DNA of 64,000 nt from an uncultured Eubacteriales bacterium (GTDB lineage: Bacteria; Bacillota; Clostridia; Oscillospirales; Acutalibacteraceae), in assembly GCA_964507395.1 (NCBI GenBank), contig CAZDQE010000004.1, positions 1,048 to 65,047 on the forward strand, in the 5' to 3' direction. Position 1 is the first letter of the stretch. Every line of letters starts with the position of its first letter. The notes under the pieces are model-generated. The model was not told the DNA's origin. It did not search any database and saw nothing but the letters and a program-made list of their open reading frames with translations. This document shows positions 1 through 13,075 of the stretch, piece after piece. Both the position numbers and the translations under genes were made by a program.

Positions 1-115
1 CTAACTGCTGACGGCATCGCAGGTCCGAAAACATGGGTAAAATTGTAATATAAACCACTAAAGTGTATTTTTTTCTAAAATATCGTAATATTTTCTTGAA
101 AAGTGTAAAATTTAT

Positions 116-160
116 CCCCCTATTGTAGTTAACGCTACAGTAGGGGGATTTTTTTATTTT
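116..160 (+). terminator. Rho-independent terminator of an upstream (off-window) + strand gene
   Basis: Stem CCCCCTATTGTAG / CTACAGTAGGGGG (one mismatch), loop TTAACG, followed by ATTTTTTTATTTT. Confidence 0.6.
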
Positions 161-241
161 GTATCGCATTTCGTTATAATATATCGTTTTCAGGTTTATT
201 ATAGAACATATTGATATAATATAACGGAAGGGGCGAGTCGT

Positions 242-487
242 GTGATTAGAATTTTACTTTCAAAAAAATTAGGCGAGCTTCGATGGACTCAGGCTGATTT
301 AGCGAGAAAGACGGGAATAAGACCTAACGCCATCAGCGACATATACAATGAGATGGTCGACAGAGTGAGTTTAGAATATCTCGACAGAATATGTGCTGCA
401 TTGAATTGTGAACTTTCTGAAATTCTCGTGCGAGAGCCCACGGAGATTCCAGAAATGGAAAGTCGCTCCAAATCAATCCAAAAGTAA
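242..487 (+). CDS. XRE/Cro-C1 family helix-turn-helix transcriptional regulator (81 aa, GTG start)
   Basis: The sequence LGELRWTQADLARKTGIRPNAISDIYN...VSLEYLDRICAALNCELSEIL is a typical HTH_XRE fold pattern. GGAAGGGG RBS upstream. Confidence 0.8.
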   Translation: MIRILLSKKLGELRWTQADLARKTGIRPNAISDIYNEMVDRVSLEYLDRICAALNCELSEILVREPTEIPEMESRSKSIQK

Positions 488-492
488 GAAAA

Positions 493-537
493 AGACCGTA
501 GAAGGCACCTGGAAAGGTGTTTTCTATGGTCTTTATT
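493..537 (+). terminator. Terminator of the XRE gene
   Basis: Stem AGACCGTAGAA / TTCTATGGTCT (one G-U) enclosing an inner CACCT/AGGTG stem, then a T-rich tail. Confidence 0.55.
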
Positions 538-550
538 ACTGATAACATGG

Positions 551-658
551 GTGTGCTAATTCTTCGGTGCCGATGTCAGTCAATAAACCTTTGAGTTCAG
601 GATAAGGCATTGCGAAACGCTGGCTCAAATATCGCAATGAAGCGCCAAGCTCACCATC
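551..658 (-). pseudogene. cotJC: cotJC middle fragment (about codons 33-69 of a CotJC/manganese-catalase-family spore coat protein)
   Basis: Minus-strand translation 658->551 is DGELGASLRYLSQRFAMPYPELKGLLTDIGTEELAH. It is colinear with the family region GG.DGEL.A.LRYL.QR....LLTDIGTEE.AH and has no start codon of its own. Confidence 0.8.
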
Positions 659-675
659 CCGACAACTGATTTTAT
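655..675. repeat. attL-like junction: core CATC (655-658) plus element-side arm CAACTGATTTTAT (663-675)
   Basis: The same 4-bp core occurs at the other junction. The arm is the inverted complement (12/13) of the arm at 10868-10880. Confidence 0.7.
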
Positions 676-701
676 AGTTTGTCTTTTTTATTCTTTTATT
701 T

Positions 702-2291
702 TTAATCAAACGGATTGCTGAATTTATAATTTATAACAATCTCATTTGACTTGTATATATAAATACTTTCTATCAATTGACCTATAAGTAAGGGCGAAAC
801 AGTATCAAAAGAAACAATGCTTTTTATTAATTCAAAAACCTGCTCAGGCTTTTTCTTTTCTTTTGCCTGAGTTGCTTCTTCTTCAATTTTTGAAAGTTTC
901 TTTGATAATGTTTCCTTTTCTTCGTTAAACTCTGAAATCATTGTCAAAAAATCTTCTTCTGATATTATTCCTCTTACTTTATCCTCATACAGAGATTTAA
1001 TTATTCGTTTTATTTCAGTTAATCGTTTCAATATCGTTTCTGTTTCTTTTTCTGCATTTACAGCATTCAAATCAACATTTTCAATATTGAAGCTTTTGCA
1101 AAATTCGTCTTTGTTGTCAAATACTTTTTCAGATATGGTTTTCAGATGTGATAAAACATATTTATTTAAAACATCTTCCTTTATAACATTTCTCTGACAT
1201 TTATCTTTTCCGAATCTTGAATAACCTGAACACAGACATATAAATTCTTTCTTTTTTCCTACTCGTCTGAATGTCATCGGCATTTTGCAGTCACCGCAGA
1301 AGATAATACCGCCTAATAAGTGATTTACTCGTTCAACTGGATATTGCAATTGTGATTTCTGCTTTATTCGTTCCTGAACGGTGTTAAAATCTTCTTTGCT
1401 GACAATAGCTTCGTGTGTATCTTCTGCTATTATCCAGTCTTTGCGAGGGATTTTCTTAAATTTTTTCATTTTATAGCTTATCTTCTCGCTTCTGTGCTGT
1501 GCCATGTTTCCTATATATGTAGGATTCGTCAAAATACCCTTTATGGTTTCCGTTCTCCATACATTGTATTTTATATTGACATTGACATAAGAAAGATTTT
1601 GAACAGTCTTTTTATACTCCGTCGGAGTAGGTACAGATTCATCTGTTAAAGTTTTTGCTATCATTGCCATACTGTAACCGTTTAAATACATTGAAAAAAT
1701 ACGTTTTACTGTTTCAGAACCAATAGGGTCAATAATCAGTTTGTTTTTATCATTTTTAGATTTCAAATACCCAAACGGAGCAAAAGCACCGATAAATTGA
1801 CCGTTAATTCTTTTTGTATCCATAACAGTACGAATTTTCTTTGATATGTCTTTTGCATACATGTCGTTTAATACGGACTTAAACGGTGTCATATCGTTGT
1901 TAGCAGATTTTGCAAATGTGTCTATACCGTCACTTAAAGCTATATATCTGATGTTTTTCTGTGGAAAGTATCTTTCAATATAATAGCCTGTGTCTATGTA
2001 ATCTCTGCCAAGTCTTGATAAGTCTTTAGTTATCACCAAATTAATTTTTTTGTTTTCTATGTCAGCAATCATCTTCCTGAAATCAGGGCGGTCAAAATTA
2101 AGACCTGAATATCCGTCATCAATATAGATTTTTGTAATATTCCAACCTTTTTCAAGAACATAATTAACTAAATAGTCTTTTTGATTTTTAATGCTCATTG
2201 ACTGTCCGCTTTCTTCATCTTCACGGGAAAGTCTTAAATATAGACCGACATTATAAACCATTGTATCTAAGCAGTTATTTTGAGTTATCAT
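702..2291 (-). CDS. Large serine recombinase (resolvase/invertase N-domain + recombinase domain + zinc ribbon + coiled coil), 529 aa
   Basis: N-terminal VGLYLRLSREDEESGQSMSIKNQ (catalytic Ser context). Central recombinase domain. Cys cluster CGDCKMPM...CLCSGYSRFGKDKCQ. Lys/Glu-rich coiled-coil tail. Confidence 0.9.
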   Translation of the reverse strand: MITQNNCLDTMVYNVGLYLRLSREDEESGQSMSIKNQKDYLVNYVLEKGWNITKIYIDDGYSGLNFDRPDFRKMIADIENKKINLVITKDLSRLGRDYIDTGYYIERYFPQKNIRYIALSDGIDTFAKSANNDMTPFKSVLNDMYAKDISKKIRTVMDTKRINGQFIGAFAPFGYLKSKNDKNKLIIDPIGSETVKRIFSMYLNGYSMAMIAKTLTDESVPTPTEYKKTVQNLSYVNVNIKYNVWRTETIKGILTNPTYIGNMAQHRSEKISYKMKKFKKIPRKDWIIAEDTHEAIVSKEDFNTVQERIKQKSQLQYPVERVNHLLGGIIFCGDCKMPMTFRRVGKKKEFICLCSGYSRFGKDKCQRNVIKEDVLNKYVLSHLKTISEKVFDNKDEFCKSFNIENVDLNAVNAEKETETILKRLTEIKRIIKSLYEDKVRGIISEEDFLTMISEFNEEKETLSKKLSKIEEEATQAKEKKKPEQVFELIKSIVSFDTVSPLLIGQLIESIYIYKSNEIVINYKFSNPFD

Positions 2292-2312
2292 TTAATCCTC
2301 CTTTTCCTCAAA

Positions 2313-2480
2313 TTAATAACTACTCATAGACTGATTATATTTTACACTATTTTCTGTTAATTGCCAATGTTTTAAAGGCATTTTAACAAGATTATTTATA
2401 TGTATTTCTACTATCTTTTTAAAACTTACTTCCTCTTTTGTATAGTTAGCTGTTACTATATATTTATTTTCATTGAACAT
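2313..2480 (-). CDS. Small hypothetical protein (55 aa from MFNENKY...) immediately upstream of, and co-oriented with, the serine recombinase
   Basis: ORF with a GAGGTGG RBS 6 nt before the ATG at 2480. No recognisable motifs. Its position is compatible with a regulator or directionality factor, but this is unproven. Confidence 0.35.
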   Translation of the reverse strand: MFNENKYIVTANYTKEEVSFKKIVEIHINNLVKMPLKHWQLTENSVKYNQSMSSY

Positions 2481-2629
2481 ATACACCACCTCAATAAATT
2501 TTATGTGATACATATGTTCAATATGTAAATATCAAAAAAACGCCCAGCATGGACGCGTTTTATTAATTATGAAGAGGGGAGTTTACCCCATTCAGACAAA
2601 GGTTGCCTGAATGGGGAGTGTCTTGTATA

Positions 2630-5600
2630 TTAGCTGATTTTAATTCGCATTGCAGGTCGAATACCGATAGAAGTATCTTCAGCAGGCCATTCTCTTCCAT
2701 AAAACTCACCGCCGACATGTCCTTCTAATCCAACACCGAGAGCATTGTTACTAAAAATTCCACCTGCTGTTCTAAGTCTCCAATACGATTTTCCACAGTC
2801 ATCGCCATAAAAATTAACATCTGACGGAACATATAAACCTTGACATTTAGCATAGTCTGTACCCCAAGCCACTCTTGATATATCTGAACCTTTACTTGAA
2901 AAACCATAATTTGAATTTAGTGCTTCATTGTATGATAACAAAAATATTTTATCTGATGTTGATTTACTACTGAATTCTTTGTAATCAGTATCTGAACAGT
3001 TATTACTAACTATTGTCGACTTAATTTGATTTTTTTCGTTATCGCTAAAAGCTACTTTGTAGAAATCATTATTTAACCATTTTCTTATTGAGCTAGTCTC
3101 ATAATTATTAGCATAGTGTTTGCAATTAGAATCACTGTATAATGATAAATAATAGTCAGAAGGATTTTCTTTATAATAAATTGTATCCGTGAATGGTTGA
3201 GAGTCAATTATACTTTCGCACATAGCAAGTCCATTATTGGGGTCTAAAATTCGCCATTTTAATGGCTCATACTTAAACCAATATATCGTATTCTTGTGAT
3301 AACCGTTTTCATATTGCCAAGACCAATCACGTTCTTGAGATTCTTGTACATCTGTTGGTCTATATTTAGAAAAAGTTACTGCACGATATTTATTGCCTTT
3401 ATATGTAACCTCAGCATATTTCATGTAGTCACTTTTTACCATTGAGCCATACTCGCCATTTCCTGAGTAATAGCCGTATGATTTCCAGTTTAATGTCTGA
3501 CTGTTAAGAGCAGAAATCAAGTTCCTATCGGTTACTTTAGACTGTGGATATGAGCCAAAAGTAATAACATCTCCAACCTTATATTTTGTAGTGCTTGTTT
3601 TGTCAGATTTATTAGAATTTGACTCATTTTGATTATTTTTCGACAACAAAACAGCCTCAACAAGCTTGATGTTTTCAGAATTAACATTAATACTAATATA
3701 CCGTGTATCAGTATCAAGTAAATAGTCATCATGGGTAAAATGTAACGAGTAAATACCATAAGGAAGATTAAGAGAAAACTGCCCGTTCTTGTCAGTTGTT
3801 ACCGTGGCTATCAAGTCAGCATTCTCGCTTTCATTGTCAGTTACCTTAACAGTAACCCCTGAAATTGCTTTTCCTGTTGATATATCCTTAACCGTTCCTA
3901 TCACATTACCCATCTTCGGGGACATATATACTGTATTAAGATTAACATTTTCTACATCTTTTTCTATAACAGTTTTAACGGTTTTTGTTACAAAGTTATC
4001 AGATGTTATTGTCAAAGTATATGTTCCGACAGGCAAAGTCAATTCAAATTTTCCCGTTTCATCTGTTACTGTAGTGCGTTTTGCACCGTTTACATCTACT
4101 GTAACAGTAATATTATTTAATGGCTTGTCTGTATCTTTTTCTTTAACAAAAGCTGTAACTGTACCATAACCGATATCAGTTCTACGTATTGCTTCTTCAA
4201 CAGCCAGTTTTGCATTTACCATTTTATATGTATTGTTTAATGGGTGTTTTCCGTCAGGGTTATCATTTACAGTAATTGATGTATAATTACATACCATTTC
4301 TTTTACTTCTGCACCTGTGAAATTAGAATTTACAGACCAAACTAAACCACATACACCTGTAACTTGCGGTGCAGCCATTGAAGTGCCACTCAATAGACCG
4401 TAATTGTTATCAACAGTTGTACTATATATATCAGTTCCTGGGGCGCAAATATCAACTCTTGTCCCACCATTTGAATCTATTGCTTGCTGATACGTACCGT
4501 CAGAATTCTTTTTTGCATTACCGACAACAATAATTCTGTTAAGTATATCATGCTTCATTTTTTCGGTTGAAGCAACAACATTATTTTCAGTAACAGAACA
4601 CCAATAGCCATTGTTTGTTGCGTCCACAGCAATTTGTTCAATTGTGTTTCGAGCAACTTCTACAGGAGTACCATTTCCTGATGACTGGACAACCAAAAAA
4701 TCATAATTATCATTTAATAAATTTTCCATAACTTGACAAGCTTTTTTAGCCTGTTCATCTTTCCAAGTTTGAGAAAAATTTACTGAACCTCGTTCACTGC
4801 TATATACAGAAACAAAACCATTGTTGTCTATTTCTGTGGCACCTGAACAACCCAAAGAAAAGTTAACAACTTTTGCTCCTTTTGTTACTGAATCTTCAAG
4901 AGATTTCAATACCCGTGAGGCTGAATCCCATTGTTGTTTTCCTTTGGTTTCATTTGGTAACCAGTCACTGTAAATTATATTAACTTTTTTTAATATACCA
5001 GTTATTCCTTTATTATCGGCTATAGAACCAATAATTCCTGCAACATGTGTGCCGTGACTATTAGTAATTTCTTTTTTCTGTTTCTCATTCCATTCTTTAT
5101 AGTCATTTTCGCTTTCCATATTTTCCGTTGACGGGGTAAAAATTCCATTTAAATCTTCATGGTCTAAATCAAAACCAGTATCAACAACACCTATTTCTAT
5201 TTCAGAAAATCGGTTTTCATAGTTATATACAGAAGAAACTTCCATAGCTTCATATCCCCAGTCACCGATATCTTCCCAATATTTATATGCTACCATTGAT
5301 TCCCGAATATCAGTATCTGGAACTACTTTATCCGCAGTATTTATCATTGCAGCGAAAACTTCGTCTTTTTCCTCTAACTCACTACTTATTTTTTTTAGTT
5401 CTTTATATGATTTTTCATCAATTTTGATATCCCAAATCGAACCGCCCCTGCCTGCAATTTCTCCATTATACGGTTTTATGATTTCAAGTATTTCATCTTC
5501 TGTGACATCATCTTCAAATATAACTAAAAGAATATTATTTACATAGGTTATACCAGTTTCTTCATCATATCTTACCTTGCTTTCGTCAAATGTATAGGAA

Positions 5601-5983
5601 GTTCCACTATCGTAATGAATATTAATTGTTTCTGTTGTACTTCCTTTATCAGTTTTAGCGGTAATAACAATTTCGTTTTCTCCAGAAACTAAAAATACTT
5701 CTTTGATATACCAATTGTTTTTATTGACTACAGCTTTTCCAGACCAATAAACATCTCCATTTTGATATCCCTCATAGATTATCTCCTCAACAGTATCAGA
5801 AGTTTCTATTGTTCCTGAAAGACTTGTTTTGCTTTTAATTGTGTCAAAGTCTTTTTGGTCAATGGTTAATTTTATGTTGCTGTTATTATCAGAGTTATTC
5901 AGACAAAATATAGCCACTATAATAGCCGAAACTACAACTGTTATAGCTAAAATTAGAATTAGCATTTTTTTCGATTTCTTCAT
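2630..5983 (-). CDS. Secreted subtilisin-like serine protease (peptidase S8), 1117 aa, with CarboxypepD_reg-like beta-sandwich repeats and a C-terminal FGSYPQ-type (DUF6273-like) domain
   Basis: N-terminal signal/anchor MKKSKKMLILILAITVVVSAIIV. Catalytic triad contexts VVDTGFDLDHEDL, HGTHVAGIIGS, GTSMAAPQVTG. Two GxV.D..TGK...V.V repeats. C-terminal VGDVITFGSYPQSKV... segment. Confidence 0.85.
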   Translation of the reverse strand: MKKSKKMLILILAITVVVSAIIVAIFCLNNSDNNSNIKLTIDQKDFDTIKSKTSLSGTIETSDTVEEIIYEGYQNGDVYWSGKAVVNKNNWYIKEVFLVSGENEIVITAKTDKGSTTETINIHYDSGTSYTFDESKVRYDEETGITYVNNILLVIFEDDVTEDEILEIIKPYNGEIAGRGGSIWDIKIDEKSYKELKKISSELEEKDEVFAAMINTADKVVPDTDIRESMVAYKYWEDIGDWGYEAMEVSSVYNYENRFSEIEIGVVDTGFDLDHEDLNGIFTPSTENMESENDYKEWNEKQKKEITNSHGTHVAGIIGSIADNKGITGILKKVNIIYSDWLPNETKGKQQWDSASRVLKSLEDSVTKGAKVVNFSLGCSGATEIDNNGFVSVYSSERGSVNFSQTWKDEQAKKACQVMENLLNDNYDFLVVQSSGNGTPVEVARNTIEQIAVDATNNGYWCSVTENNVVASTEKMKHDILNRIIVVGNAKKNSDGTYQQAIDSNGGTRVDICAPGTDIYSTTVDNNYGLLSGTSMAAPQVTGVCGLVWSVNSNFTGAEVKEMVCNYTSITVNDNPDGKHPLNNTYKMVNAKLAVEEAIRRTDIGYGTVTAFVKEKDTDKPLNNITVTVDVNGAKRTTVTDETGKFELTLPVGTYTLTITSDNFVTKTVKTVIEKDVENVNLNTVYMSPKMGNVIGTVKDISTGKAISGVTVKVTDNESENADLIATVTTDKNGQFSLNLPYGIYSLHFTHDDYLLDTDTRYISINVNSENIKLVEAVLLSKNNQNESNSNKSDKTSTTKYKVGDVITFGSYPQSKVTDRNLISALNSQTLNWKSYGYYSGNGEYGSMVKSDYMKYAEVTYKGNKYRAVTFSKYRPTDVQESQERDWSWQYENGYHKNTIYWFKYEPLKWRILDPNNGLAMCESIIDSQPFTDTIYYKENPSDYYLSLYSDSNCKHYANNYETSSIRKWLNNDFYKVAFSDNEKNQIKSTIVSNNCSDTDYKEFSSKSTSDKIFLLSYNEALNSNYGFSSKGSDISRVAWGTDYAKCQGLYVPSDVNFYGDDCGKSYWRLRTAGGIFSNNALGVGLEGHVGGEFYGREWPAEDTSIGIRPAMRIKIS

Positions 5984-6049
5984 TTTTACACACTCCTTAA
6001 ATTATTTGAAAGATAATGCATAATTCGCAAAAAGCTACGAAAAATAATG

Positions 6050-6062
6050 ATAAAATCAGTTG
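6050..6062. repeat. Third, internal copy of the serine-recombinase arm motif ATAAAATCAGTTG
   Basis: 13/13 identical to the reverse complement of 663-675 and 12/13 to 10868-10880. Lies between the S8 gene start and the left 28-bp inverted repeat. Confidence 0.7.
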
Positions 6063-6069
6063 ACCCCCT

Positions 6070-6097
6070 TTTTCGTGAAGTTTACAACTTTGCGAAA
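6070..6097. repeat. Left copy of a perfect 28-bp inverted repeat (TTTTCGTGAAGTTTACAACTTTGCGAAA) bracketing the tyrosine integrase gene
   Basis: Exact reverse complement of 7420-7447, checked base by base. Confidence 0.9.
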
Positions 6098-6142
6098 AAA
6101 AAGCAAGAAGCCCTGATTTTCAAGGTTTCTTGCTTTTTTTTG
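6094..6142. terminator. Bidirectional intrinsic terminator downstream of the integrase gene
   Basis: A-run, stem AAGCAAGAA / TTCTTGCTT, then T8. It reads as a terminator on both strands. Confidence 0.6.
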
Positions 6143-6158
6143 ACCCATTTTTTGACCC

Positions 6159-7250
6159 CTAAAAGCAAACCGCAAGTTTTTCTATATTCTGCTTTTTGTA
6201 CTCTATTGTAGGGTGTACATATCTATCTAATGTAAAGCTGACTGTTGAATGTCCCAGTATTTCGCTTAATGTTTTTATATCAATATTTTGTTCAACTGCT
6301 CTTGTTGCAAATGTATGTCTTAATGCATGATAATTAATATTTCTGATTCCTGTCTGTTCCAAATATCTTTTAAATCTGTATTGATATGCTCTCGGCTCTG
6401 TGTACTTTCTTTCATTACCTGTTAAAATATATTCTTTCGGCAAACTGTATTTTGATAATATTTTAAGTTCTGATAATAAAAATTCGGGAATAGGTATTTT
6501 TCTTATTGATTTTATACTCTTGGGAGTGTCTATTATAATTTTGGTCTTGTTTTCTGTGCTTTTATCTGTGACTGGTATTCTTTGAAGAGTTTTTGTAATG
6601 CTTATTATTCCTGTATTTAAATCTATATCCTGCCATTGTAAAGCACAGACTTCACCTAAACGAAGTCCTGCAAATAGTGATAATAAAATTCCTATATTTT
6701 CACGGTTAATATCTTGTTTGATTTTGTTTACTAAAAATTCCTGTTCGCTTTTGCTTAATACTTCTAAATCTTTCCTCGGTACGATAGGTCTTGCGAAATC
6801 GTATATTAAAGGTTGTATATATTTTTCTCTTTCTGCGTATTTCAATATCTGAACAAGTACAGCTGTTATATCCTGAATACTTTTTTCTCCTAACTTGCCC
6901 TGTTGTATCTTATATTTAATAAATGAATTTATATTGTTTCTGTCAATTTTAGATATATGAGTATTATTAAAATATGGTATAAGGTGTCTGTTCATTATTC
7001 CGTTATATCTTGCAATGGTAGATTGTTTATTTTTGATTTCTTTTTCTTTAAGCCACTCCTTACATAAGATTTCAAAGGATATTTTAGATTTTATCGGTTT
7101 ATCTTCTTTTAATTCTGATGTTCGCATTTTGCTTTTTACTTCGGTGTAGGTGGGAGCATAAATTGATTTATATTTGCCTGTATCAGTTAAAACTCTTGCT
7201 TCCCAACGTCCGTCTTTTCGTTTTCGTATATTTTCTCCTCGTTTCGGCAT
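6159..7250 (-). CDS. Tyrosine site-specific integrase with N-terminal arm-binding-type domain (363 aa)
   Basis: N-terminus RKRKDGRWEARV (Tn916-Int-like arm-binding fold pattern). Catalytic contexts AGLRLGEVCALQW, HALRHTFATRA, LGHSTVSFTLDRYVH (R..HxxR..H..Y). Confidence 0.9.
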   Translation of the reverse strand: MPKRGENIRKRKDGRWEARVLTDTGKYKSIYAPTYTEVKSKMRTSELKEDKPIKSKISFEILCKEWLKEKEIKNKQSTIARYNGIMNRHLIPYFNNTHISKIDRNNINSFIKYKIQQGKLGEKSIQDITAVLVQILKYAEREKYIQPLIYDFARPIVPRKDLEVLSKSEQEFLVNKIKQDINRENIGILLSLFAGLRLGEVCALQWQDIDLNTGIISITKTLQRIPVTDKSTENKTKIIIDTPKSIKSIRKIPIPEFLLSELKILSKYSLPKEYILTGNERKYTEPRAYQYRFKRYLEQTGIRNINYHALRHTFATRAVEQNIDIKTLSEILGHSTVSFTLDRYVHPTIEYKKQNIEKLAVCF

Positions 7251-7364
7251 AGATACCAGTCCTTTCTGACCCTTATTTTGACCCCCAATAAACAGAAAAA
7301 TGATGATGTTTTAATCTTTGAGAATAAAAATATCTTTCTGCACCTTCTAAATTAGCGTAAAATA

Positions 7365-7393
7365 TTGACATTTGCTGAAATTTTATATAAAAT
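7365..7393 (+). promoter_or_regulatory. Near-consensus sigma-A-type promoter (TTGACA-17 bp-TAAAAT) facing rightwards, just inside the right 28-bp inverted repeat
   Basis: TTGACA at 7365-7370, a 17-nt spacer, TAAAAT at 7388-7393. Confidence 0.45.
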
Positions 7394-7419
7394 TTAGGTG
7401 AAATAAGAAAGATTTTGGC

Positions 7420-7447
7420 TTTCGCAAAGTTGTAAACTTCACGAAAA
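7420..7447. repeat. Right copy of the perfect 28-bp inverted repeat
   Basis: TTTCGCAAAGTTGTAAACTTCACGAAAA is the exact reverse complement of 6070-6097. Confidence 0.9.
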
Positions 7448-7507
7448 TACAAGTATGTAATCTCATTTTTATGTTATAAATATATTCAATTAAATCCATT
7501 ATATTCC

Positions 7508-7536
7508 AGACAGGCTGAAAAGCTTGTCTTTTTTTG
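7508..7536 (+). terminator. Possible intrinsic terminator (weak stem) about 120 nt downstream of the 7365 promoter
   Basis: Stem AGACAGGC / GCTTGTCT (one G-U), loop TGAAAA, then a T run. Confidence 0.4.
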
Positions 7537-7621
7537 TCTGCAAGTGTTCTTTTTGGTTGATACAAAAGTGTTCTTTTTTATCAAGACACACCATAATATT
7601 AAAATAGGAAAAGTAAAGTCC

Positions 7622-7740
7622 GCAACTGCCTATATTACACACAAACGAAGTTTTACGAGTGTGAGGGGTCTCGACTTTGCACCCGAGACCCCTCACACTC
7701 ATCATGGTAAAACTTTTCGTTATGTGTGTTATGCAGTTGC
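7622..7740. repeat. ~120-nt imperfect palindrome with a perfect 17-bp core stem; candidate oriT or structured leader of the Replic_Relax operon
   Basis: Core GAGTGTGAGGGGTCTCG (7657-7673) / CGAGACCCCTCACACTC (7684-7700). Outer pairings ACACACAAACGAAGTTTTAC~GTAAAACTTTTCGTTATGTGTGT and GCAACTGC (7622-7629) / GCAGTTGC (7733-7740). Confidence 0.75.
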
Positions 7741-7801
7741 TGATGTGTTGTGTGTTTTGGTGTTTGTATTTGTTTGTTAGTTTAGTGTGTGGTGAGTTGT
7801 T

Positions 7802-8431
7802 GTGGGTATAAGATTAGTTGAGAGAGATTATTTAATATTAAGAGAGATAGACAGGTGGAGAGTAATTACAGGTAAGCAGATATGTAAGGTAGCTGGATTT
7901 TCGGGTCAGAGGTCTTGCGACAGAAGGCTTCATAAGCTTTTGATTGCCGGGATTCTTGACAGAAAGCGAATATTATACGGAATCCCGGCAATCTATGAAT
8001 TGACCCCAAGGGGAAAAGCCATTATCGGTATACCGATAAAAAACGAGCGTGTACGAGTTGAACAAATCGTACACGATATGGCCGTATTGGATACGGCTAT
8101 ATATTTCAGCCATAAATATGCAATTGCCTTTTCAGATATTAAATCTGAAAAACAATTACATAAACAAGACGGGTTTGCTGTTCGCAAGCACCGCCCCGAC
8201 TTTGTTTTCACAAAGAATAACAAATCTTTTTGTGTCGAGGTCGAGCTTACAATGAAATCAAAGGAAAGATTTAGTAAAAATATTATTGCTAACTTTACAG
8301 ATTACTATATTCAAATATGGGTAGTTCCTGACTTTAATTCAAAAATATATGCGTTTCTTTGTGAGATGAAAGAAAGCTATCCAAATATAAAAATCATTGA
8401 TATTAATGAGGTGAAGTCTTATAACGTTTGA
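7802..8431 (+). CDS. Replication-relaxation (Replic_Relax) family protein, 209 aa, GTG start
   Basis: N-terminal winged-helix pattern LVERDYLILREIDRWRVITGKQI...CDRRLHKLLIAGILDRKR...YELTPRGKAI. C-terminal nuclease-like HD..RPDFVF...CVEVELTMKSKER. Confidence 0.7.
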   Translation: MGIRLVERDYLILREIDRWRVITGKQICKVAGFSGQRSCDRRLHKLLIAGILDRKRILYGIPAIYELTPRGKAIIGIPIKNERVRVEQIVHDMAVLDTAIYFSHKYAIAFSDIKSEKQLHKQDGFAVRKHRPDFVFTKNNKSFCVEVELTMKSKERFSKNIIANFTDYYIQIWVVPDFNSKIYAFLCEMKESYPNIKIIDINEVKSYNV

Positions 8432-9828
8432 AGCTTTATTTAATCGGTTTAACTAAATACGGAAATGCAATTTTACTTACAGTTATGGCAATAGCCTTGT
8501 TTTTCATTTGCCTTGAAGCAAGAAAAAGCTTGATTATAAAGAAGCATTTTAACTTTTGGAGAGATTTAAAAGCTATGAACAGGAAAATAAAGCCTAATTT
8601 AACAAGTAGTAAAGACAGCACTTTTTTAGGCTACAGCCACAAAAAGCCTGTATACATTCCCGATAATTGCAAACATTGCTTTGTTTGCGGTACAACAGGA
8701 AGCGGAAAGACCGTTGTTCTTTCAAACTTCATCAAGCATGGTGCAGAAATGAAATACCCCATGCTTATAGTTGACGGCAAGGGCGATATTGGAAACGGCT
8801 CAATTTTGGAAATAACAAAGCATTTTGTAAACAGGCAAAAATTATATGTTATAAACCTTGCAGACCCGATAAAATCTGATAAATACAACCCTTTCAGATA
8901 TGCAAGTCCGACAATGTGCAAGGATATGCTGATTAATATGACGGAGTGGAGCGAAGAACACTATAAACTGAATACAGAAAGATATCTGCAAAGGCTTATT
9001 ATACTGTTACAGCAAAATGACATTCCCCTGTCGTTCAACACTATTATTAATAATATGAGTGTTGCGAATTTCAACGCTTTAAGTTCAAGGTTGCTGAAAG
9101 CTGAAATAATAAGCAAGCAAGAACATTTATTAAACCTTAATATTTCTGATACTTGCGGTAAAATCGCACAAAATGCAAGTGCAAGGTTCAGCACTATTGC
9201 AGAAAGTGAGTTCGGCTCAATATTTGCTGATAACGGAATAGACATATACACGGCAATTAAAGAAAACGCAGCTATATTGTTTGTTTTAAATCCTTTACTT
9301 TATCCTGAAATTTCACCTTTAATGGGTAAACTGATATTAATTGATGCTAAACAAGCAGTAAATAAATGTTTTAATTCAGGACTTGAAAGAGCGTTTTACA
9401 TATTTGACGAGATAAATAGTTATGCTTCACCGACTTTAATAGATTTAATAAACAAGTCAAGAAGTGCAAATATTACATCAATACTTGCAACACAAAGTTT
9501 GTCGGATTTAGATTTTGCCTGTAATGAAGCATTTAAAGAACAAGTAATAGAAAATACAAATAATTATATTGTTTTAAGACAGAACAGTTCTGTAAATTCC
9601 GAGCATTGGGCGAATGTTTTAGGAACAAAGTCAACTATTGATGTAACTTATCAATTACAACAAAGGGGGTATTTAGAAACATCTGAAACAGGTTTAGGAA
9701 GTGCAAGACGTGTAAGAGAATTTTTATATCACCCTGATGATATTAAGATTTTACAGGTTGGAAAAGGTATTTTTATGTCAAAGGATAACGGCTATCACTC
9801 AAAAATAGATATTATAAAGCCATTTTAG
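8428..9828 (+). CDS. Type IV coupling protein-like ATPase (VirD4/TraG/TraD family, TraM-recognition-domain type), 466 aa
   Basis: N-terminal TM segment. Walker A CGTTGSGKT. Walker B YIFDEINSY. ILATQSLSDL motif typical of the FtsK/TraG superfamily. Start overlaps the upstream stop. Confidence 0.8.
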   Translation: MKLYLIGLTKYGNAILLTVMAIALFFICLEARKSLIIKKHFNFWRDLKAMNRKIKPNLTSSKDSTFLGYSHKKPVYIPDNCKHCFVCGTTGSGKTVVLSNFIKHGAEMKYPMLIVDGKGDIGNGSILEITKHFVNRQKLYVINLADPIKSDKYNPFRYASPTMCKDMLINMTEWSEEHYKLNTERYLQRLIILLQQNDIPLSFNTIINNMSVANFNALSSRLLKAEIISKQEHLLNLNISDTCGKIAQNASARFSTIAESEFGSIFADNGIDIYTAIKENAAILFVLNPLLYPEISPLMGKLILIDAKQAVNKCFNSGLERAFYIFDEINSYASPTLIDLINKSRSANITSILATQSLSDLDFACNEAFKEQVIENTNNYIVLRQNSSVNSEHWANVLGTKSTIDVTYQLQQRGYLETSETGLGSARRVREFLYHPDDIKILQVGKGIFMSKDNGYHSKIDIIKPF

Positions 9829-9840
9829 GAGGTTTGTTTT

Positions 9841-10710
9841 ATGGAGAAAAGAGGCGGATTTTTCAAATCAAATTGGGCATATTTAGTATGGTTTGCAATT
9901 TATTATACTATCGCAGTTTTTCTGATTTATATGTGTACAAGCGATTTTGTAATAAGCTTTTTTCTATCTTTTTTCATTTATGGTGCTTCTGTAGGACTTG
10001 CATTATCTCCTGTTGGAGAAAGTATATTACGGTTAATGCAGGGAATTAAACCAATTCAGACAGAACAAGACAGAGAATATTTAATGCCGATTTTTGAAGA
10101 AGTGTATGCAGAAGCTTTAAAATTCACTCCCGAACTAAACGAAGATATCGAACTATACATATCTGAAAGTATGACAGTAAATGCCTTTGCTATCGGAAGA
10201 AAGACAATAGCAGTAACAAGAGGAGCAATATATACCTTTAGTCCCGAGGAATTAAAGGGAATATTATCCCATGAATTCGGTCATATGGCGAATGGTGATA
10301 CAAAAGCCTTACTTATTAATGTAGTAGGAAACGGATTTTTCTCTTTAATAATCTTTGTTTTTCGGTTTATAATGTTGTTAATACAAAATATTACGGTTGC
10401 TTTTAGCGGTAAAAATATTGTTGTTGCTGTACTTGCAATAATTTCATTTTTATTCAGATTACTTGTTGATTTAGGAATAATTGTGTTTGTTTTCTTGGGT
10501 AATGTGATTTTAGCACTCAATAGCAGATACAGTGAACTGCTTGCTGATGAATACGCTTTTCAAATCGGCTATGGCGAAGAACTAAAGAATTCTTTGTATA
10601 TAATCAGTAAATTGAGTTTACCTGAAAAATTAACGCTTATGGAACGCTTGACAGCTTCACACCCATATACAACAGCAAGAATTGAAAAACTTGAAGAATT
10701 AGGGGCTTAA
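9841..10710 (+). CDS. Membrane M48-family (HtpX-like) zinc metalloprotease, 289 aa
   Basis: HEFGHMANGD (HExxH), several TM segments, C-terminal SHPYTTARIEKLEE typical of M48. Confidence 0.8.
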   Translation: MEKRGGFFKSNWAYLVWFAIYYTIAVFLIYMCTSDFVISFFLSFFIYGASVGLALSPVGESILRLMQGIKPIQTEQDREYLMPIFEEVYAEALKFTPELNEDIELYISESMTVNAFAIGRKTIAVTRGAIYTFSPEELKGILSHEFGHMANGDTKALLINVVGNGFFSLIIFVFRFIMLLIQNITVAFSGKNIVVAVLAIISFLFRLLVDLGIIVFVFLGNVILALNSRYSELLADEYAFQIGYGEELKNSLYIISKLSLPEKLTLMERLTASHPYTTARIEKLEELGA

Positions 10711-10721
10711 ACAAGCCACAA

Positions 10722-10830
10722 TATCCCATACCCCTTAATTGATAATACTGCCAAAAGTAAGAAAATCAGACTTGCAAAACGCAGGTCTGATTTTCGCTTT
10801 TGGCATATTCTTTCTTTTGGGTATGGGATA
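10722..10830. repeat. Three-tier 109-bp palindrome at the right end of the element; the inner hairpin functions as a bidirectional terminator
   Basis: Outer TATCCCATACCC (10722-10733) / GGGTATGGGATA (10819-10830). Middle GCCAAAAG / CTTTTGGC. Inner GAAAATCAGAC(TTGC) / (GCAG)GTCTGATTTTC with A/T flanks. Confidence 0.75.
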
Positions 10831-10867
10831 ATATTTTAGTCAAGAGTAGTTATTAATTTGATGTGTC

Positions 10868-10886
10868 ATAAAATCAGTGGTTCATC
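10868..10886. repeat. attR-like junction: element-side arm ATAAAATCAGTGG (10868-10880) plus core CATC (10883-10886)
   Basis: Mirror image of the junction at 655-675. Confidence 0.7.
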
Positions 10887-10982
10887 GGGTCCGCCATACT
10901 GAGTAATAATGATTTTTGCAAGCTTCGGATTGGGATTCTTAATATTTACAGGATACTGTAATCTCTTTTCATATTGGAACAT
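10884..10982 (-). pseudogene. cotJC: cotJC N-terminal fragment (codons 1-33); as it stands the frame ends at 10866 after 5 foreign codons
   Basis: Minus-strand translation is MFQYEKRLQYPVNIKNPNPKLAKIIITQYGGPD, then EPLIL-stop. The ATG overlaps the cotJB stop (TAATG). Confidence 0.85.
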
Positions 10983-11242
10983 TAGCAGTCACAACCTTCT
11001 TTCTCCCATGGCCATGGGTTTTTAATCCATTCAACGCCCTGTGCGTTAGTAGTTGAAAGCTTCCAGCATTTTTCTTCAAATTCCTCGCGAAGCATCAGAT
11101 ATTTTTCTTTATATTTATTATAAAGTGCAATGGCTTCCGTATCGCATGTATGTGTGTCAAGATAAAGGTGAAGATCCCACATGACAAATGCAGTTGCAGA
11201 AAGCTGCCTTAAAAGATCATTGTTTCTCATCATTTGCAACAA
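10982..11242 (-). CDS. cotJB: Spore coat protein CotJB
   Basis: Family hallmark FVMWDLHLYLDTHTCDTEAIALYNKY. 86 aa. Sits between a CotJA-like ORF and the cotJC start. Confidence 0.85.
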   Translation of the reverse strand: MLQMMRNNDLLRQLSATAFVMWDLHLYLDTHTCDTEAIALYNKYKEKYLMLREEFEEKCWKLSTTNAQGVEWIKNPWPWEKEGCDC

Positions 11243-11493
11243 CCTCCGAGAAAAGGCTTGTCGAGGCAGGGGAATGCTGTTCCTCTTTCCAATGCTTTAC
11301 ATTCATCATAAAGCTCCGTCATTTCCTGAAAAGGCACAAATGCCATAGCTACCGGTGTACATTCGGGAAATTTTCCTTCGGGCTGAATACAACATTTTTT
11401 TACATAACTATAGTTGCTTCTGTCCGTTTGTCTGTAGTAATTGTCACGCATCATACGAGAATTACCTGACGAATAATCATACATTCTTTGCAA
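11230..11493 (-). CDS. cotJA: Spore coat-associated protein CotJA
   Basis: VAMAFVPFQEMTELYDECKALERGTAFPCLDKPF matches the CotJA pattern (AMAYVP.Q...Y....AL..GT.FP.L..PF). The start may be the TTG at 11493 or the ATG at 11484. Confidence 0.8.
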   Translation of the reverse strand: MQRMYDYSSGNSRMMRDNYYRQTDRSNYSYVKKCCIQPEGKFPECTPVAMAFVPFQEMTELYDECKALERGTAFPCLDKPFLGGCCK

Positions 11494-11598
11494 AATGATT
11501 CTCCTTTCATAAGTTTATTCATTATTATGTTATGTGCTTTGTCCCAAAGTGTGAAAATAAGTTGCAAAAAAGCGGCAAGTTTAAACTTACCGCTTTCT

Positions 11599-12430: not shown

Positions 12431-13075
12431 TTACTGCATTTTTTCCTGTTTGATTTTTTTGTCAATAATATGACGCTTTGAAAGCTCTGTTGTAACATCA
12501 TCAAGTGTGATGCCCATTTCAATCATCATAACCATTACATGATAAGCAAGGTCAGCAATTTCATAAATTGTTTCGGCTTTGTCGCCGCCTTTAGCACCGA
12601 TGATAACCTCGGTACATTCTTCGCCTACCTTCTTGAGTATTTTATCAATACCTTTTTCAAAAAGGTAAGTTGTGTACGAGCCTTCTTTTTTCTGGGTTTT
12701 TCTGCCAACGAGCATATCGTAAAGTCCCGGATATGAGAAAGCGTTTTCTTTTGACGGTTCAACAATATCGTTGAAGAAACAGCTCTCACTTCCCGTATGA
12801 CAGGCAGGACCTTCTTTAATTACATCTACAAGAAGAGTGTCCATATCGCAGTCAGTTCTGATTGATACAATATTCTGCACATTACCTGATGTTGCACCTT
12901 TTCTCCAGAGCTCCTGTCTGCTTCTGCTGAAGAAGCAGGTTTTTCCTTCTTCTATACTGATTCTAAGACTTTCTTCATTCATGTATGCAAGCATAAGAAC
13001 TTTTTTGGTGTAAAAATCCTGTACAATTGCAGGAATGAGCCCTTTTTCATCATATTTTAACTCTTTAATATCCAT
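12431..13075 (-). CDS. hisIE: Bifunctional phosphoribosyl-AMP cyclohydrolase / phosphoribosyl-ATP pyrophosphatase
   Basis: GLIPAIVQD...CDMDTLL..V...[10 protein letters not shown] (HisI) followed by a HisE-like helical domain. Last gene of the his operon. Confidence 0.9.

Follow-up and report, generated by a model that had tools for sequence, protein, structure and literature searches.

A tyrosine integrase gene within its own inverted repeats: a probable invertible promoter cassette beside an S8 protease gene, with relatives in gut Clostridia

Does an integrase gene that sits between the two arms of a perfect inverted repeat, with an outward-facing promoter at one end, control the gene next door by inverting itself? 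The question is raised by a segment of 1.38 kb in the window (the whole 64-kb stretch of DNA that was analysed) that lies between a gene for a large S8 protease and the operon of a mobilizable island. This segment is likely, in our judgement, to act as a self-contained cassette whose invertible promoter turns the adjacent protease gene on and off, and we set out below which parts of this reading are observed and which are inferred.

The boundaries of the segment were as the original prediction had them: the two arms are present, 100% complementary and separated by 1322 nt (Table 1), and the repeat is exactly 28 nt long because the adjoining base is unlike on both sides. With up to 3 mismatches permitted, the 28-mer had 2 matches in total in the 64-kb window, compared to 0.00 expected from dinucleotide shuffles. 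Within itself, each 28-mer forms an imperfect palindrome, T-TTTCGTGAAG-TTTACAA-CTTTGCGAAA, in which two inverted half-sites of ~10 nt flank the asymmetric spacer TTTACAA, as in the core site of a tyrosine recombinase. Within 8 kb on either side, neither the window nor any related locus contained further copies of the site, except for one tandem site (L068), and the presence of only two sites rules out a shufflon or other multiple-inversion system. When JGI metagenome contigs were searched with the 28-mer, allowing degeneracy at four positions, there was no match and no further copies of the element were obtained.

A single open reading frame of at least 150 aa lies within the segment, confirming that the repeats enclose only the integrase gene, its terminator and its upstream region. 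Its product matches the Pfam families Phage_integrase (PF00589, 5e-24) and Phage_int_SAM_3 (PF14659, 2e-10), and the catalytic set R197/K220/H308/R311/H334/Y344 is invariant in an alignment of the integrase family. The AlphaFold model (pLDDT 86) begins with a three-strand-plus-helix (beta-beta-beta-alpha) domain at residues 8-47 and a disordered linker, followed by a SAM-like core-binding domain and the catalytic domain. Its best structural matches in the PDB (Foldseek) were Tn1549 Int (E = 2.5e-15, TM 0.62-0.73) and full-length lambda Int, the latter aligned across about 360 columns, and the two Pfam matches together with these structures identify the integrase fold in the catalytic and core-binding domains. 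Sequence comparison gave the N-terminal domain only two weak hints of kinship with known arm-binding domains, neither of them significant (PF02920 in 1 of the 30 members, and an AP2-domain protein with E = 4), and a profile of the N-terminal 62 residues found no significant match among PDB sequences, so that its assignment rests on the predicted fold; on this modelled basis, and without binding data, it may be an arm-binding domain. NCBIfam offered no named family for the integrase, every match falling far below cut-off, including the 'tyrosine-type DNA invertase' models (24 bits against cut-offs of about 221). Two other assignments were rejected: an integron platform, on the integron-integrase model (63 bits against a cut-off of 265) and on the presence of two identical sites only, with no attC array; and membership among the serine invertases (Hin/Gin/Cin), on the finding of tyrosine-recombinase domains only and no Resolvase catalytic domain.

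The near-consensus promoter predicted just inside the right repeat was located there, with a -35 element at 7365-7370, a 17-nt spacer and a -10 element at 7388-7393 that ends 26 nt from the right core site; its score (11/12) is the highest between 5800 and 8000. At the opposite end, the claim of a bidirectional terminator beside the left repeat holds as well, since a hairpin (-25.8 kcal/mol, z = -6.4 against shuffles) stands there between an A-run and a T-run. By folding prediction, this hairpin terminates integrase transcripts and stops transcription that arrives from the left; a comparably strong hairpin is found at the cassette in only about 20 of 55 relatives. The hairpin and T-run described beyond the right repeat were also recovered. 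In the absence of expression data, the promoter and the terminators remain consensus or folding predictions, and promoter activity is inferred. Tandem direct repeats (TTTTGACCC on the plus strand, GGGTCAAAA on the integrase strand) flank the reading frame at 6137-6162 and 7263-7288; such GGTCAAA-type pairs stand on either side of it in many relatives too (no binding data), the one after the stop codon in most of them. The second repeat of the upstream pair abuts the ribosome-binding site of the integrase gene. A search of 5700-8000 against Rfam yielded no RNA family and only sub-threshold hairpin matches.

Table 1. Features of the putative cassette and of its surroundings (window coordinates).
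Feature	Position	Strand	Basis or remark
S8 protease, 1117 aa (Peptidase_S8, CarboxypepD_reg, SpaA-like, DUF6273)	2630..5983	-	candidate switch-controlled gene
Leader, 86 nt, left core site to S8 protease start codon	5984..6069	-	RBS AAGGAG, no terminator
Extra GGGGTCAA copy 2 nt outside left (cargo-side) core site	6060..6067	-	also in L005 and L084
Left core recombination site	6070..6097	.	28-nt repeat arm; family-wide site anatomy; inversion breakpoint in L084 and L002/L003
Bidirectional intrinsic-terminator-like hairpin inside left core site	6095..6141	.	A-run, stem-loop, T-run; folding
Two tandem GGGTCAAAA-type repeats right after integrase stop codon	6137..6162	-	candidate arm-type sites
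Tyrosine integrase, 363 aa	6159..7250	-	Pfam, family alignment, AlphaFold model, PDB matches
Two tandem GGGGTCAAAA/GGGTCAGAAA repeats 10-35 nt upstream of integrase ATG	7263..7288	-	candidate arm-type sites, candidate autoregulatory operator
Outward sigma-70-type promoter (predicted), TTGACA-17-TAAAAT	7365..7393	+	consensus match; position conserved in relatives
Right core recombination site	7420..7447	.	exact reverse complement of 6070-6097
Intrinsic terminator (predicted) 61 nt beyond right core site	7508..7536	+	hairpin 7508-7529 plus T-run
Replic_Relax / VirD4-like coupling protein / M48 peptidase operon of mobilizable island	7802..10710	+	neighbour; Replic_Relax gene 7802-8431

This anatomy is conserved. 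Relatives of the integrase occupy at least 553 loci in species-representative genomes, and 80 related loci were examined, among which the integrases of the conserved set are only 38-63% identical to that of the window. At least 62 of the 80 have flanking repeats with a score of 17 or more at fixed distances from the reading frame, and about 14 lack the repeats; the common architecture consists of two palindromic core sites, an outward promoter and tandem GGTCAAA repeats around the gene. In every locus the inverted score exceeded the direct score, which rules out a direct-repeat (excision) orientation of the sites. In loci from viral contigs, repeats accompanied 11 of 17 integrases with at least 34% identity and none of 42 more distant ones, and the absence of flanking repeats from these 42 outgroup integrases (maximum score 12) excludes a chance origin. 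The same co-occurrence (62/80 loci versus 0/42 in the outgroup) is the basis for inferring that the integrase acts on these sites. A promoter scoring at least 10/12 is present on the outward strand in 50 of 62 loci, compared to 4 of 62 on the integrase strand, and in 38 of 59 loci, versus 1.1 expected from shuffles, its -10 ends at a fixed distance from the site (median 28 nt). The carriers are mostly mobile elements of abundant gut Clostridia (Ruminococcus, Oscillospiraceae, Lachnospiraceae), and the cultured ones include Ruminococcus albus 7 and Vescimonas fastidiosa MM35, whose plasmid pMM35_02 (NZ_AP023417.1) bears a perfect 29-nt version of the repeat, with the sites at L168 3772-3800 and 5180-5208. 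The remark that a tyrosine integrase is unusual in this position stands for the searchable literature and fails for genomes, in which the arrangement is the rule within a large clade of Clostridia integrases.

The neighbouring genes were identified as had been proposed, the S8 protease gene on one side and Replic_Relax on the other. At least one neighbour reads away from the cassette in 53 of 55 loci (p = 2.5e-5 against 0.75), and in close relatives the product of the adjacent gene is always large and of the secreted type (S8, M4, dockerin, VWA/cadherin-like or SpaA). Across the family the neighbouring genes are very diverse, and to speak of a 'cargo switch' is therefore a generalisation. As a separate observation, cargo swapping at the core site was considered as a possibility at two loci (L047 and L054).

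Both orientations of the segment occur in sequence data. In the Logan contigs of run SRR14307658, the 30-mer composed of TT and the repeat at the integrase-3' end runs into the left flank in one contig (L003) and into the right flank in another (L002), where the right flank is preceded by 'TT' (the reverse complement of 6098-6099) and not by the window's 'GC', and the inner contig (L001) ends exactly at 6070. As the 28-nt repeat is shorter than k = 31, one orientation alone would have left the assembly graph unsplit. In this run both flanks are seen joined to the integrase-3' end alone, L001 stopping 13 nt short of the edge of the other repeat, and the flipped junction rests on two diagnostic bases plus the logic of the graph. 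Moreover, the clonality of SRR14307658 is not established and coexisting strains with fixed opposite orientations would give an identical picture; switching within a clone is inferred. A contig of 1382 bp from another run (L086) has the repeats at its bounds. Comparison of related loci revealed the same rearrangement. First, a syntenic element (L084) whose integrase is 78% identical has both flanks colinear with the window and the segment inverted, its positions 5900-7274 matching window positions 7447-6070 on the minus strand and the breakpoints falling at the repeats. Second, two loci (L034 and L037) that are 99.9% identical over more than 11 kb differ in that an IR-bounded segment of 1468 bp is inverted, and another pair (L035/L040) likewise contains an inverted segment, the flanks within these pairs being 96-100% identical. 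Overall, homologous flank matches among the 80 related loci were flipped in 24 cases and unflipped in 22. We conclude that the segment, proposed earlier to be invertible, does invert. The further proposal that inversion would aim the promoter at the protease gene is borne out by the syntenic element, where the promoter faces a large protease gene.

These features can be assembled into a mechanism. The encoded enzyme would be a heterobivalent tyrosine recombinase, similar to those of Tn916, Tn1549 and lambda, acting on the two 28-bp core sites. Because the asymmetric spacers of these sites are in inverted orientation, the 1.38-kb segment would be inverted and not excised. The GGTCAAA repeats are probably bound by the N-terminal domain of the integrase to assemble the inversion complex and, as the upstream pair overlaps the ribosome-binding site, this binding probably also holds integrase expression low; arm binding and autoregulation are both inferred. 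At one end of the segment lies a near-consensus promoter that would fire out through the core site there, and at the other end a predicted bidirectional terminator. In the present orientation the protease would be OFF or low, with the promoter aimed at the Replic_Relax side, its transcript predicted to stop at the terminator past the right site, and the protease gene facing the cassette's own terminator. After inversion (ON), the promoter would transcribe the leader into the S8 protease gene, the arrangement seen in L084. The assignment of ON and OFF and the effects on expression are inferences from this layout.

Could the cassette instead serve both sides in turn, driving either the protease or the Replic_Relax/VirD4/M48 mobilization operon, such that transfer and cargo expression exclude each other? 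In the window, as in 19 of 55 related loci, both flanking genes point away from the cassette, and the promoter is at present aimed at the mobilization operon. However, most family members have only one neighbour that reads away, 355 nt with oriT-like hairpins separate the core site from the Replic_Relax start codon, and an intrinsic terminator intervenes: located 55-80 nt beyond the repeat on the Replic_Relax side, it is kept in L007, L011 and L004 with the cassette in either orientation. Such a two-way toggle is in our estimation unlikely. On account of the conserved terminator, the switch looks one-sided, with the Replic_Relax operon apparently insulated from it.

A protease switch driven by inversion must also be weighed against a miniature mobile unit of the Tn916/Tn1549 type, reduced to its integrase, that excises and reinserts and for which inversion is a side reaction when a homology-tolerant integrase acts on near-palindromic ends. 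In Tn916-family elements, terminal inverted repeats are accompanied by internal arm-type repeats close to either end, a layout that the cassette resembles, and the Tn1549 integrase is the closest solved structure; very diverse genes adjoin the cassette, and many assemblies hold it alone on its own contig of 1.34-1.46 kb. Against this, the terminal overlaps of the short contigs are inverted and not direct, so the contigs are not circles; pairs of loci with similar cassettes all share flanks, with none in unrelated contexts; the half-sites and spacer are perfectly repeated with the spacers inverted; the promoter keeps its position relative to the site; and no target-site duplication was found beside the repeats of the window. 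With one genome sampled per species, multicopy cassettes may have been missed, and this explanation retains a very small chance of being correct. Mobility of an IS or transposon kind was likewise rejected, given the shared flanks, the lack of a duplication and the non-circular short contigs (again with one genome per species).

Two further explanations carry hardly any weight. The yeast 2-micron plasmid uses FLP/FRT inversion during replication to amplify its copy number, and by analogy inversion here could reorient a replication fork and amplify the excised island, the promoter being incidental; inverted target sites enclose a tyrosine recombinase gene, and the element also encodes a Replic_Relax protein, but the cassette is found in surroundings without Replic_Relax genes as well, there is no evidence for a replication origin, and the conserved outward promoter and terminator would be left unexplained. 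Finally, that no recombination takes place at all, the repeats being operator sites of a regulator and the flipped junctions artefacts of assembly or library preparation, can be entertained insofar as inverted repeats may give rise to chimeric reads and the within-run evidence for the window consists of short junction k-mers, but independent long contigs from different studies and assemblers invert exactly the repeat-bounded segment in 99.9%-identical or syntenic surroundings, and the sites are built as recombinase core sites are, from two half-sites around a spacer.

Returning to the invertible promoter cassette, we consider it an evenly balanced question whether it is the first example of a widespread class, so far undescribed, of autonomous and portable cassettes for phase variation in gut Clostridia. 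Such a cassette would be a 1.4-kb unit with a Tn916/lambda-like arm-binding tyrosine integrase inside its own inverton and a fixed outward promoter, carried on integrative, mobilizable and conjugative elements and on plasmids, and its switched cargo would be whatever adjoins it (proteases, adhesins, regulators, defence-like operons). Standard inverton searches cap the repeat span at 750 bp. Portable cassettes could have escaped notice because of this cap and because assemblies break at the repeats. A full-text literature search of incomplete coverage turned up no account of an arm-type integrase bracketed by IRs and accompanied by an outward promoter, which is absence of evidence only. The cassette accounts for a recurrent assembly artefact, integrase genes stranded on contigs of 1.35-1.45 kb, and suggests what inverton finders with a size limit are liable to miss; phase variation of the cargo (secreted proteases, adhesins, regulators, defence-like genes) may be general on these elements, and one gene, two sites and one promoter would make a compact memory switch for synthetic biology in Firmicutes.

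How does the cassette compare with known systems? By analogy of function, its closest counterpart is the Hin-type segment: in the H-segment of Salmonella (Hin), as in Gin of phage Mu and Cin of P1, the recombinase gene likewise lies within an invertible segment, which at about 1 kb also has short inverted end sites and an outward promoter for the adjacent gene or genes. All three enzymes are serine recombinases (Resolvase domain) and depend on an enhancer and Fis, whereas the window encodes a tyrosine integrase (PF00589) that has an N-terminal domain in addition and candidate arm repeats on both sides of its gene, so that the cassette resembles Hin in its working and is not a member of the serine invertase systems. 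Tyrosine recombinases also invert promoter or regulator segments to turn surface or secreted products ON and OFF at fimS of Escherichia coli (FimB/FimE) and, through RecV, at cwpV, flgB and other loci of Clostridioides difficile, but these recombinases are encoded outside their 150-350-bp switches and lack an arm-binding domain, and RecV serves several unlinked switches. RecV establishes that switching by tyrosine recombinases occurs in Clostridia (PMC2784873, PMC5386303, PMC5903667). In gut Clostridia, 'inverton group 139', which is linked to the tyrosine integrase 'invertase group 35', has IRs of 13-26 nt with a tyrosine-type integrase nearly always close by, and its orientation shifts were measured in culture; unlike the cassette, its invertons span about 250 bp with the integrase outside (PMC11892184). 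At the ivr/PsrA-CreX locus of Streptococcus pneumoniae and the hsd loci of Mycoplasma, a tyrosine recombinase gene does lie between inverted repeats and is moved by inversions (PMC7096588, PMC7672463). In such type I restriction-modification 'epigenetic invertons' the repeats lie within hsdS coding sequences and inversion shuffles protein domains, whereas the sites of the cassette are dedicated palindromes in non-coding DNA, and it is a promoter that is carried as payload.

In structure, the integrase is closest to those of Tn916/Tn1549 and to lambda Int, with which it has in common core-type sites, internal motifs repeated towards either end and, going by the predicted fold, the heterobivalent layout (N-terminal, core-binding and catalytic domains). 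Integration and excision of elements are the reactions of those enzymes, with overlap regions in direct orientation and Xis-type directionality factors; in the window, by contrast, the spacers are inverted, the reaction seen is inversion, substrate and product are equivalent, and the cassette has no Xis gene. If confirmed, the cassette would represent a third design of invertible promoter switch, beside the serine type with the recombinase inside and the Fim/RecV tyrosine type with the recombinase outside: a heterobivalent integrase that flips itself, with arm and core sites apparently placed such that substrate and product are equivalent, which would permit reversibility without a directionality factor.

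The integrase cassette is bounded by the originally predicted perfect 28-nt inverted repeat, the match ending at exactly 28 nt in both arms, and when ≤3 mismatches were allowed these two arms were the only matches to the 28-mer in the 64-kb window (shuffled sequence is expected to yield none). One real gene lies between the arms, upholding the proposal that the segment carries no gene but the integrase, and its 363-aa product is a tyrosine recombinase (Phage_integrase, 5e-24; Phage_int_SAM_3, 2e-10). The proposed outward-facing promoter (TTGACA, 17 nt, TAAAAT) matches at 11/12 positions, the top score of the region, and the predicted hairpin with A- and T-runs on either side beside the left arm (folding z = -6.4) and the terminator beyond the right arm both proved real as sequence features. 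No good candidate for the integrase's own promoter is visible in the sequence. Each 28-mer is an imperfect palindrome (T-TTTCGTGAAG-TTTACAA-CTTTGCGAAA) with two inverted half-sites flanking an asymmetric spacer of 7 nt, as in the core sites of tyrosine recombinases. As the spacers of the two sites are inverted relative to each other, strand exchange should invert the segment and not excise it.

Features of the cassette and its surroundings (window coordinates)
Feature	Position	Strand	Remark
Large serine recombinase	702-2291		left of cassette
Small ORF, 66 aa			between serine recombinase and S8 protease, left of cassette
S8/DUF6273 protease, 1117 aa	2630-5983	-	left of cassette
Lone further GGGTCAAAA-motif copy	6060-6067		2 nt beyond left site
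Left repeat arm	6070-6097		28 nt
Hairpin with A- and T-runs	6095-6141
Motif GGGTCAAAA pair	6137-6162	integrase strand	two tandem copies ~12 nt apart, directly past stop codon
Integrase gene	6159-7250	-
Motif GGGTCAAAA pair	7263-7288	integrase strand	tandem, ~12 nt apart, 10-35 nt upstream of ATG; second copy abuts integrase ribosome-binding site
Outward promoter	7365-7370 / 7388-7393	+	TTGACA / TAAAAT
Right repeat arm	7420-7447		28 nt
Terminator	7508-7536
Direct repeats AAGTGTTCTTTTT x2	7542-7554, 7566-7578		upstream of Replic_Relax gene
Long hairpin	7657-7673/7684-7700		17-bp perfect stem, extended by 7648-7665/7698-7715; upstream of Replic_Relax gene
Replic_Relax, VirD4-like coupling protein, M48 peptidase			right of cassette

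The idea of an invertible switch gained support from a flipped homologous locus: in L084, a 13.1-kb contig with the gene order of the window and an integrase 78% identical, positions 5900-7274 align to window 7447-6070 on the opposite strand, and both flanks are colinear. The cleanest inversion among the pairs compared is that of L034 and L037, loci from different MAGs: their flanks match at 99.9% identity across 7.8 kb on one side and at 99.2% across 2.1 kb on the other, and the intervening segment of 1468 bp, itself 99.9% identical, is inverted, with breakpoints within the 26-nt repeats. The L035/L040 pair is inverted likewise. When L006 is set against L008, L012 and L013, the gene for a large secreted protein, 72 nt away from the site, adjoins the promoter end of the cassette in one locus and the terminator end in the rest. 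When the 600 nt outside the sites were compared for all pairs of loci, 22 flank matches were in the same orientation versus 24 crosswise and reversed, which implies that orientation is essentially randomised among relatives.

The window's own element is represented in Logan contigs of run SRR14307658. One of them (L001) consists of 1365 bp equal to window 6070-7434, encodes the exact integrase protein and has one end coinciding exactly with the left repeat's outer boundary. The contig bearing the S8 protease (L003) starts with TT, the repeat and the left flank, as in the window; the Replic_Relax contig (L002) starts with the identical TT and repeat followed by the right flank, whereas beside that flank's repeat the window has GC in place of TT. 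From these junctions we conclude that the integrase-3' end of the segment was joined to both flanks in this run; as the 28-nt repeat is shorter than the graph k of 31, a single orientation alone would have left the graph unbroken. Junctions of the integrase-5' end to either flank were not seen in the SRR14307658 contigs. The other end of L001, at 7434, falls mid-spacer in the right repeat, 13 nt short of its outer edge; this stop is unexplained, possible causes being coverage, cleaning of the graph or some property of the crossover region. A second run yielded a 1382-bp contig with the repeats as bounds and an integrase 94% identical.

Relatives of the window integrase number in the thousands; scanning a single genome for each species returned at least 553 loci encoding one, the best 80 of which were inspected. 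Flanking inverted repeats (counted at score ≥17, most being 20-36 nt exact) accompany 62/80, although the integrases there are merely 38-63% identical to the window's, as well as 11/17 closer integrases in viral contigs, versus 0/42 of the more distant integrases taken as control (<34% identity, mostly prophage integrases). The repeats lie 160-270 nt upstream of the ATG and 50-100 nt past the stop; their sequence varies by locus within a retained pattern (TTTCGyAGAGT, 5 to 7 nt, ACTCTGCGAAA), and the inverted alignment outscores the direct one in every case. Tandem GGTCA(A/G)A repeats upstream of the ATG and past the stop recur widely, and a strong hairpin separates stop codon and site in 20/55 loci. 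Promoters scoring at least 10/12 occur on the outward strand in 50/62 loci versus 4/62 on the integrase strand, with a median of 28 nt (IQR 26-30) from the end of the -10 element to the site (38/59 loci versus 1.1 expected from shuffles); the predicted outward promoter is a component of the conserved module.

Cultured carriers include Vescimonas fastidiosa MM35 (pMM35_02; perfect 29-nt repeat, dockerin protein gene on the promoter side) and Ruminococcus albus 7 (pRUMAL02; 24-nt repeat, 88% complementarity). The pRUMAL02 cassette (NC_014825.1 135358-144419) sits within a nest of recombinase genes, two tyrosine recombinases directly upstream and three serine 'recombinase family' genes downstream. 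In about 20 of the best 120 integrase clusters, including ones of 48-392 member sequences, the longest contig measures 1.34-1.46 kb, the size of the cassette; such contigs recur across public metagenomes as the mark that the repeat-bounded cassette leaves in assemblies. Additional site copies were found near none of the loci, with the sole exception of L068, which has a second tandem copy of the upstream core site (4 mismatches; 3313-3340 / 3395-3422, 82 nt apart). The defining features of a shufflon fail (no additional site copies near the loci), as do those of an integron (NCBIfam models below cut-off, no additional sites).

At least one neighbour is transcribed away from the cassette in 53/55 loci (p = 2.5e-5). 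Neighbours are diverse and include Xre-type HTH and TetR regulators, FHA/TadZ/CpaF proteins, SpaA, dockerin and VWA/cadherin-like proteins, S8 and M4 proteases, EssC-like ATPases, serine recombinases and a JAB/E1-like operon; in the window's clade the site-adjacent gene always encodes a large secreted-type protein. Inversion in the window would direct the promoter through an 86-nt terminator-free leader into the S8 gene. In L084 the promoter (TTGACA-17-TAAAAT, 28 nt from the site) faces an M4 protease gene, making this locus the predicted post-inversion state. On the other side, a terminator 55-80 nt past the site is conserved in the window, L007, L011 and the flipped L004. Because the leader into the S8 gene lacks a terminator and the opposite side has a conserved one, our interpretation is that the cassette switches the cargo gene ON and OFF on one side only and that the mobilization operon is insulated from it, effects on expression being inferred. 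A two-way toggle serving both flanking operons is disfavoured and improbable, as the insulating terminator stands against it. Among loci with a single outward neighbour the promoter points away from it in 26 and toward it in 8; the OFF-like arrangement predominates in assemblies.

In L034, the operon beside the cassette (4682-11194) encodes Xre-like HTH, coiled-coil, Prok-JAB and ThiF/E1-like proteins and looks like a defence-type system; genes for a small resolvase and a CHAP-domain protein lie on the opposite side, as is typical of conjugative elements. Homology between L047 and L054 spans the cassette and stops precisely where the downstream core site ends on its outer side (9224/9225 and 7560/7561, respectively), beyond which ~700 bp encode a ~214-aa protein, 17% identical, before 91% homology returns; this stretch represents either an allele that has diverged strongly or a gene exchanged at the site.

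The catalytic set of the integrase (R197, K220, H308, R311, H334, Y344) is invariant in the family alignment. Its AlphaFold model (pLDDT 86) has an N-terminal three-strand-plus-helix domain at 8-47, followed by a disordered linker, a helical core-binding domain and the catalytic domain, and its top PDB matches are Tn1549 integrase (E = 2.5e-15) and full-length lambda Int; no NCBIfam model attained its cut-off. The sequence itself points only weakly to an arm-binding domain, and we infer one, without binding data, from the predicted fold together with the repeated motif. The integrase would then bridge arm repeats and core sites. As arms and inner half-sites travel together, the substrate would be identical in both orientations, from which we infer that inversion is reversible without Xis. 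A further inference, suggested by the arm pair that overlies the ribosome-binding site, is negative autoregulation. A GGTCA-type arm-like motif lies 2-4 nt outside one particular core site, in the fixed flank, in the window, L005, L084, L034/L037, L035/L040 and L024; its presence might render the two orientations unequal and hence bias switching.

Kinship of the enzyme also makes a mini Tn916-like transposon the most serious structural rival, but we consider it very unlikely: among the loci compared, sampled at one genome per species, similar cassettes share flanks in every case, the short contigs are not circular, the two spacers are inverted relative to each other and the promoter position is conserved. 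That the repeats are mere operator sites or an artefact, without recombination, is barely tenable given the inversions of L084 and L034/L037.

The invertible cassette resides in a mobilizable, low-GC (32-35%) island (1-11500) adjoining the his operon, which starts at 12431; the S8 protease contig ends 1 nt past the first base of the window, which leaves the left border of the island out of view. The direct repeats and hairpin within 7542-7720 are a candidate origin of transfer for the island.

That recombinases lie 'near or inside' invertible regions is known as a general pattern (PMC9881135), and flipping has been measured for small Clostridia invertons with nearby tyrosine integrases (PMC11892184); a literature search of incomplete coverage did not find the compact architecture of the cassette described. 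In function the cassette resembles the Salmonella H segment, which likewise holds recombinase and promoter inside; by enzymology its enzyme belongs to the heterobivalent tyrosine integrases.
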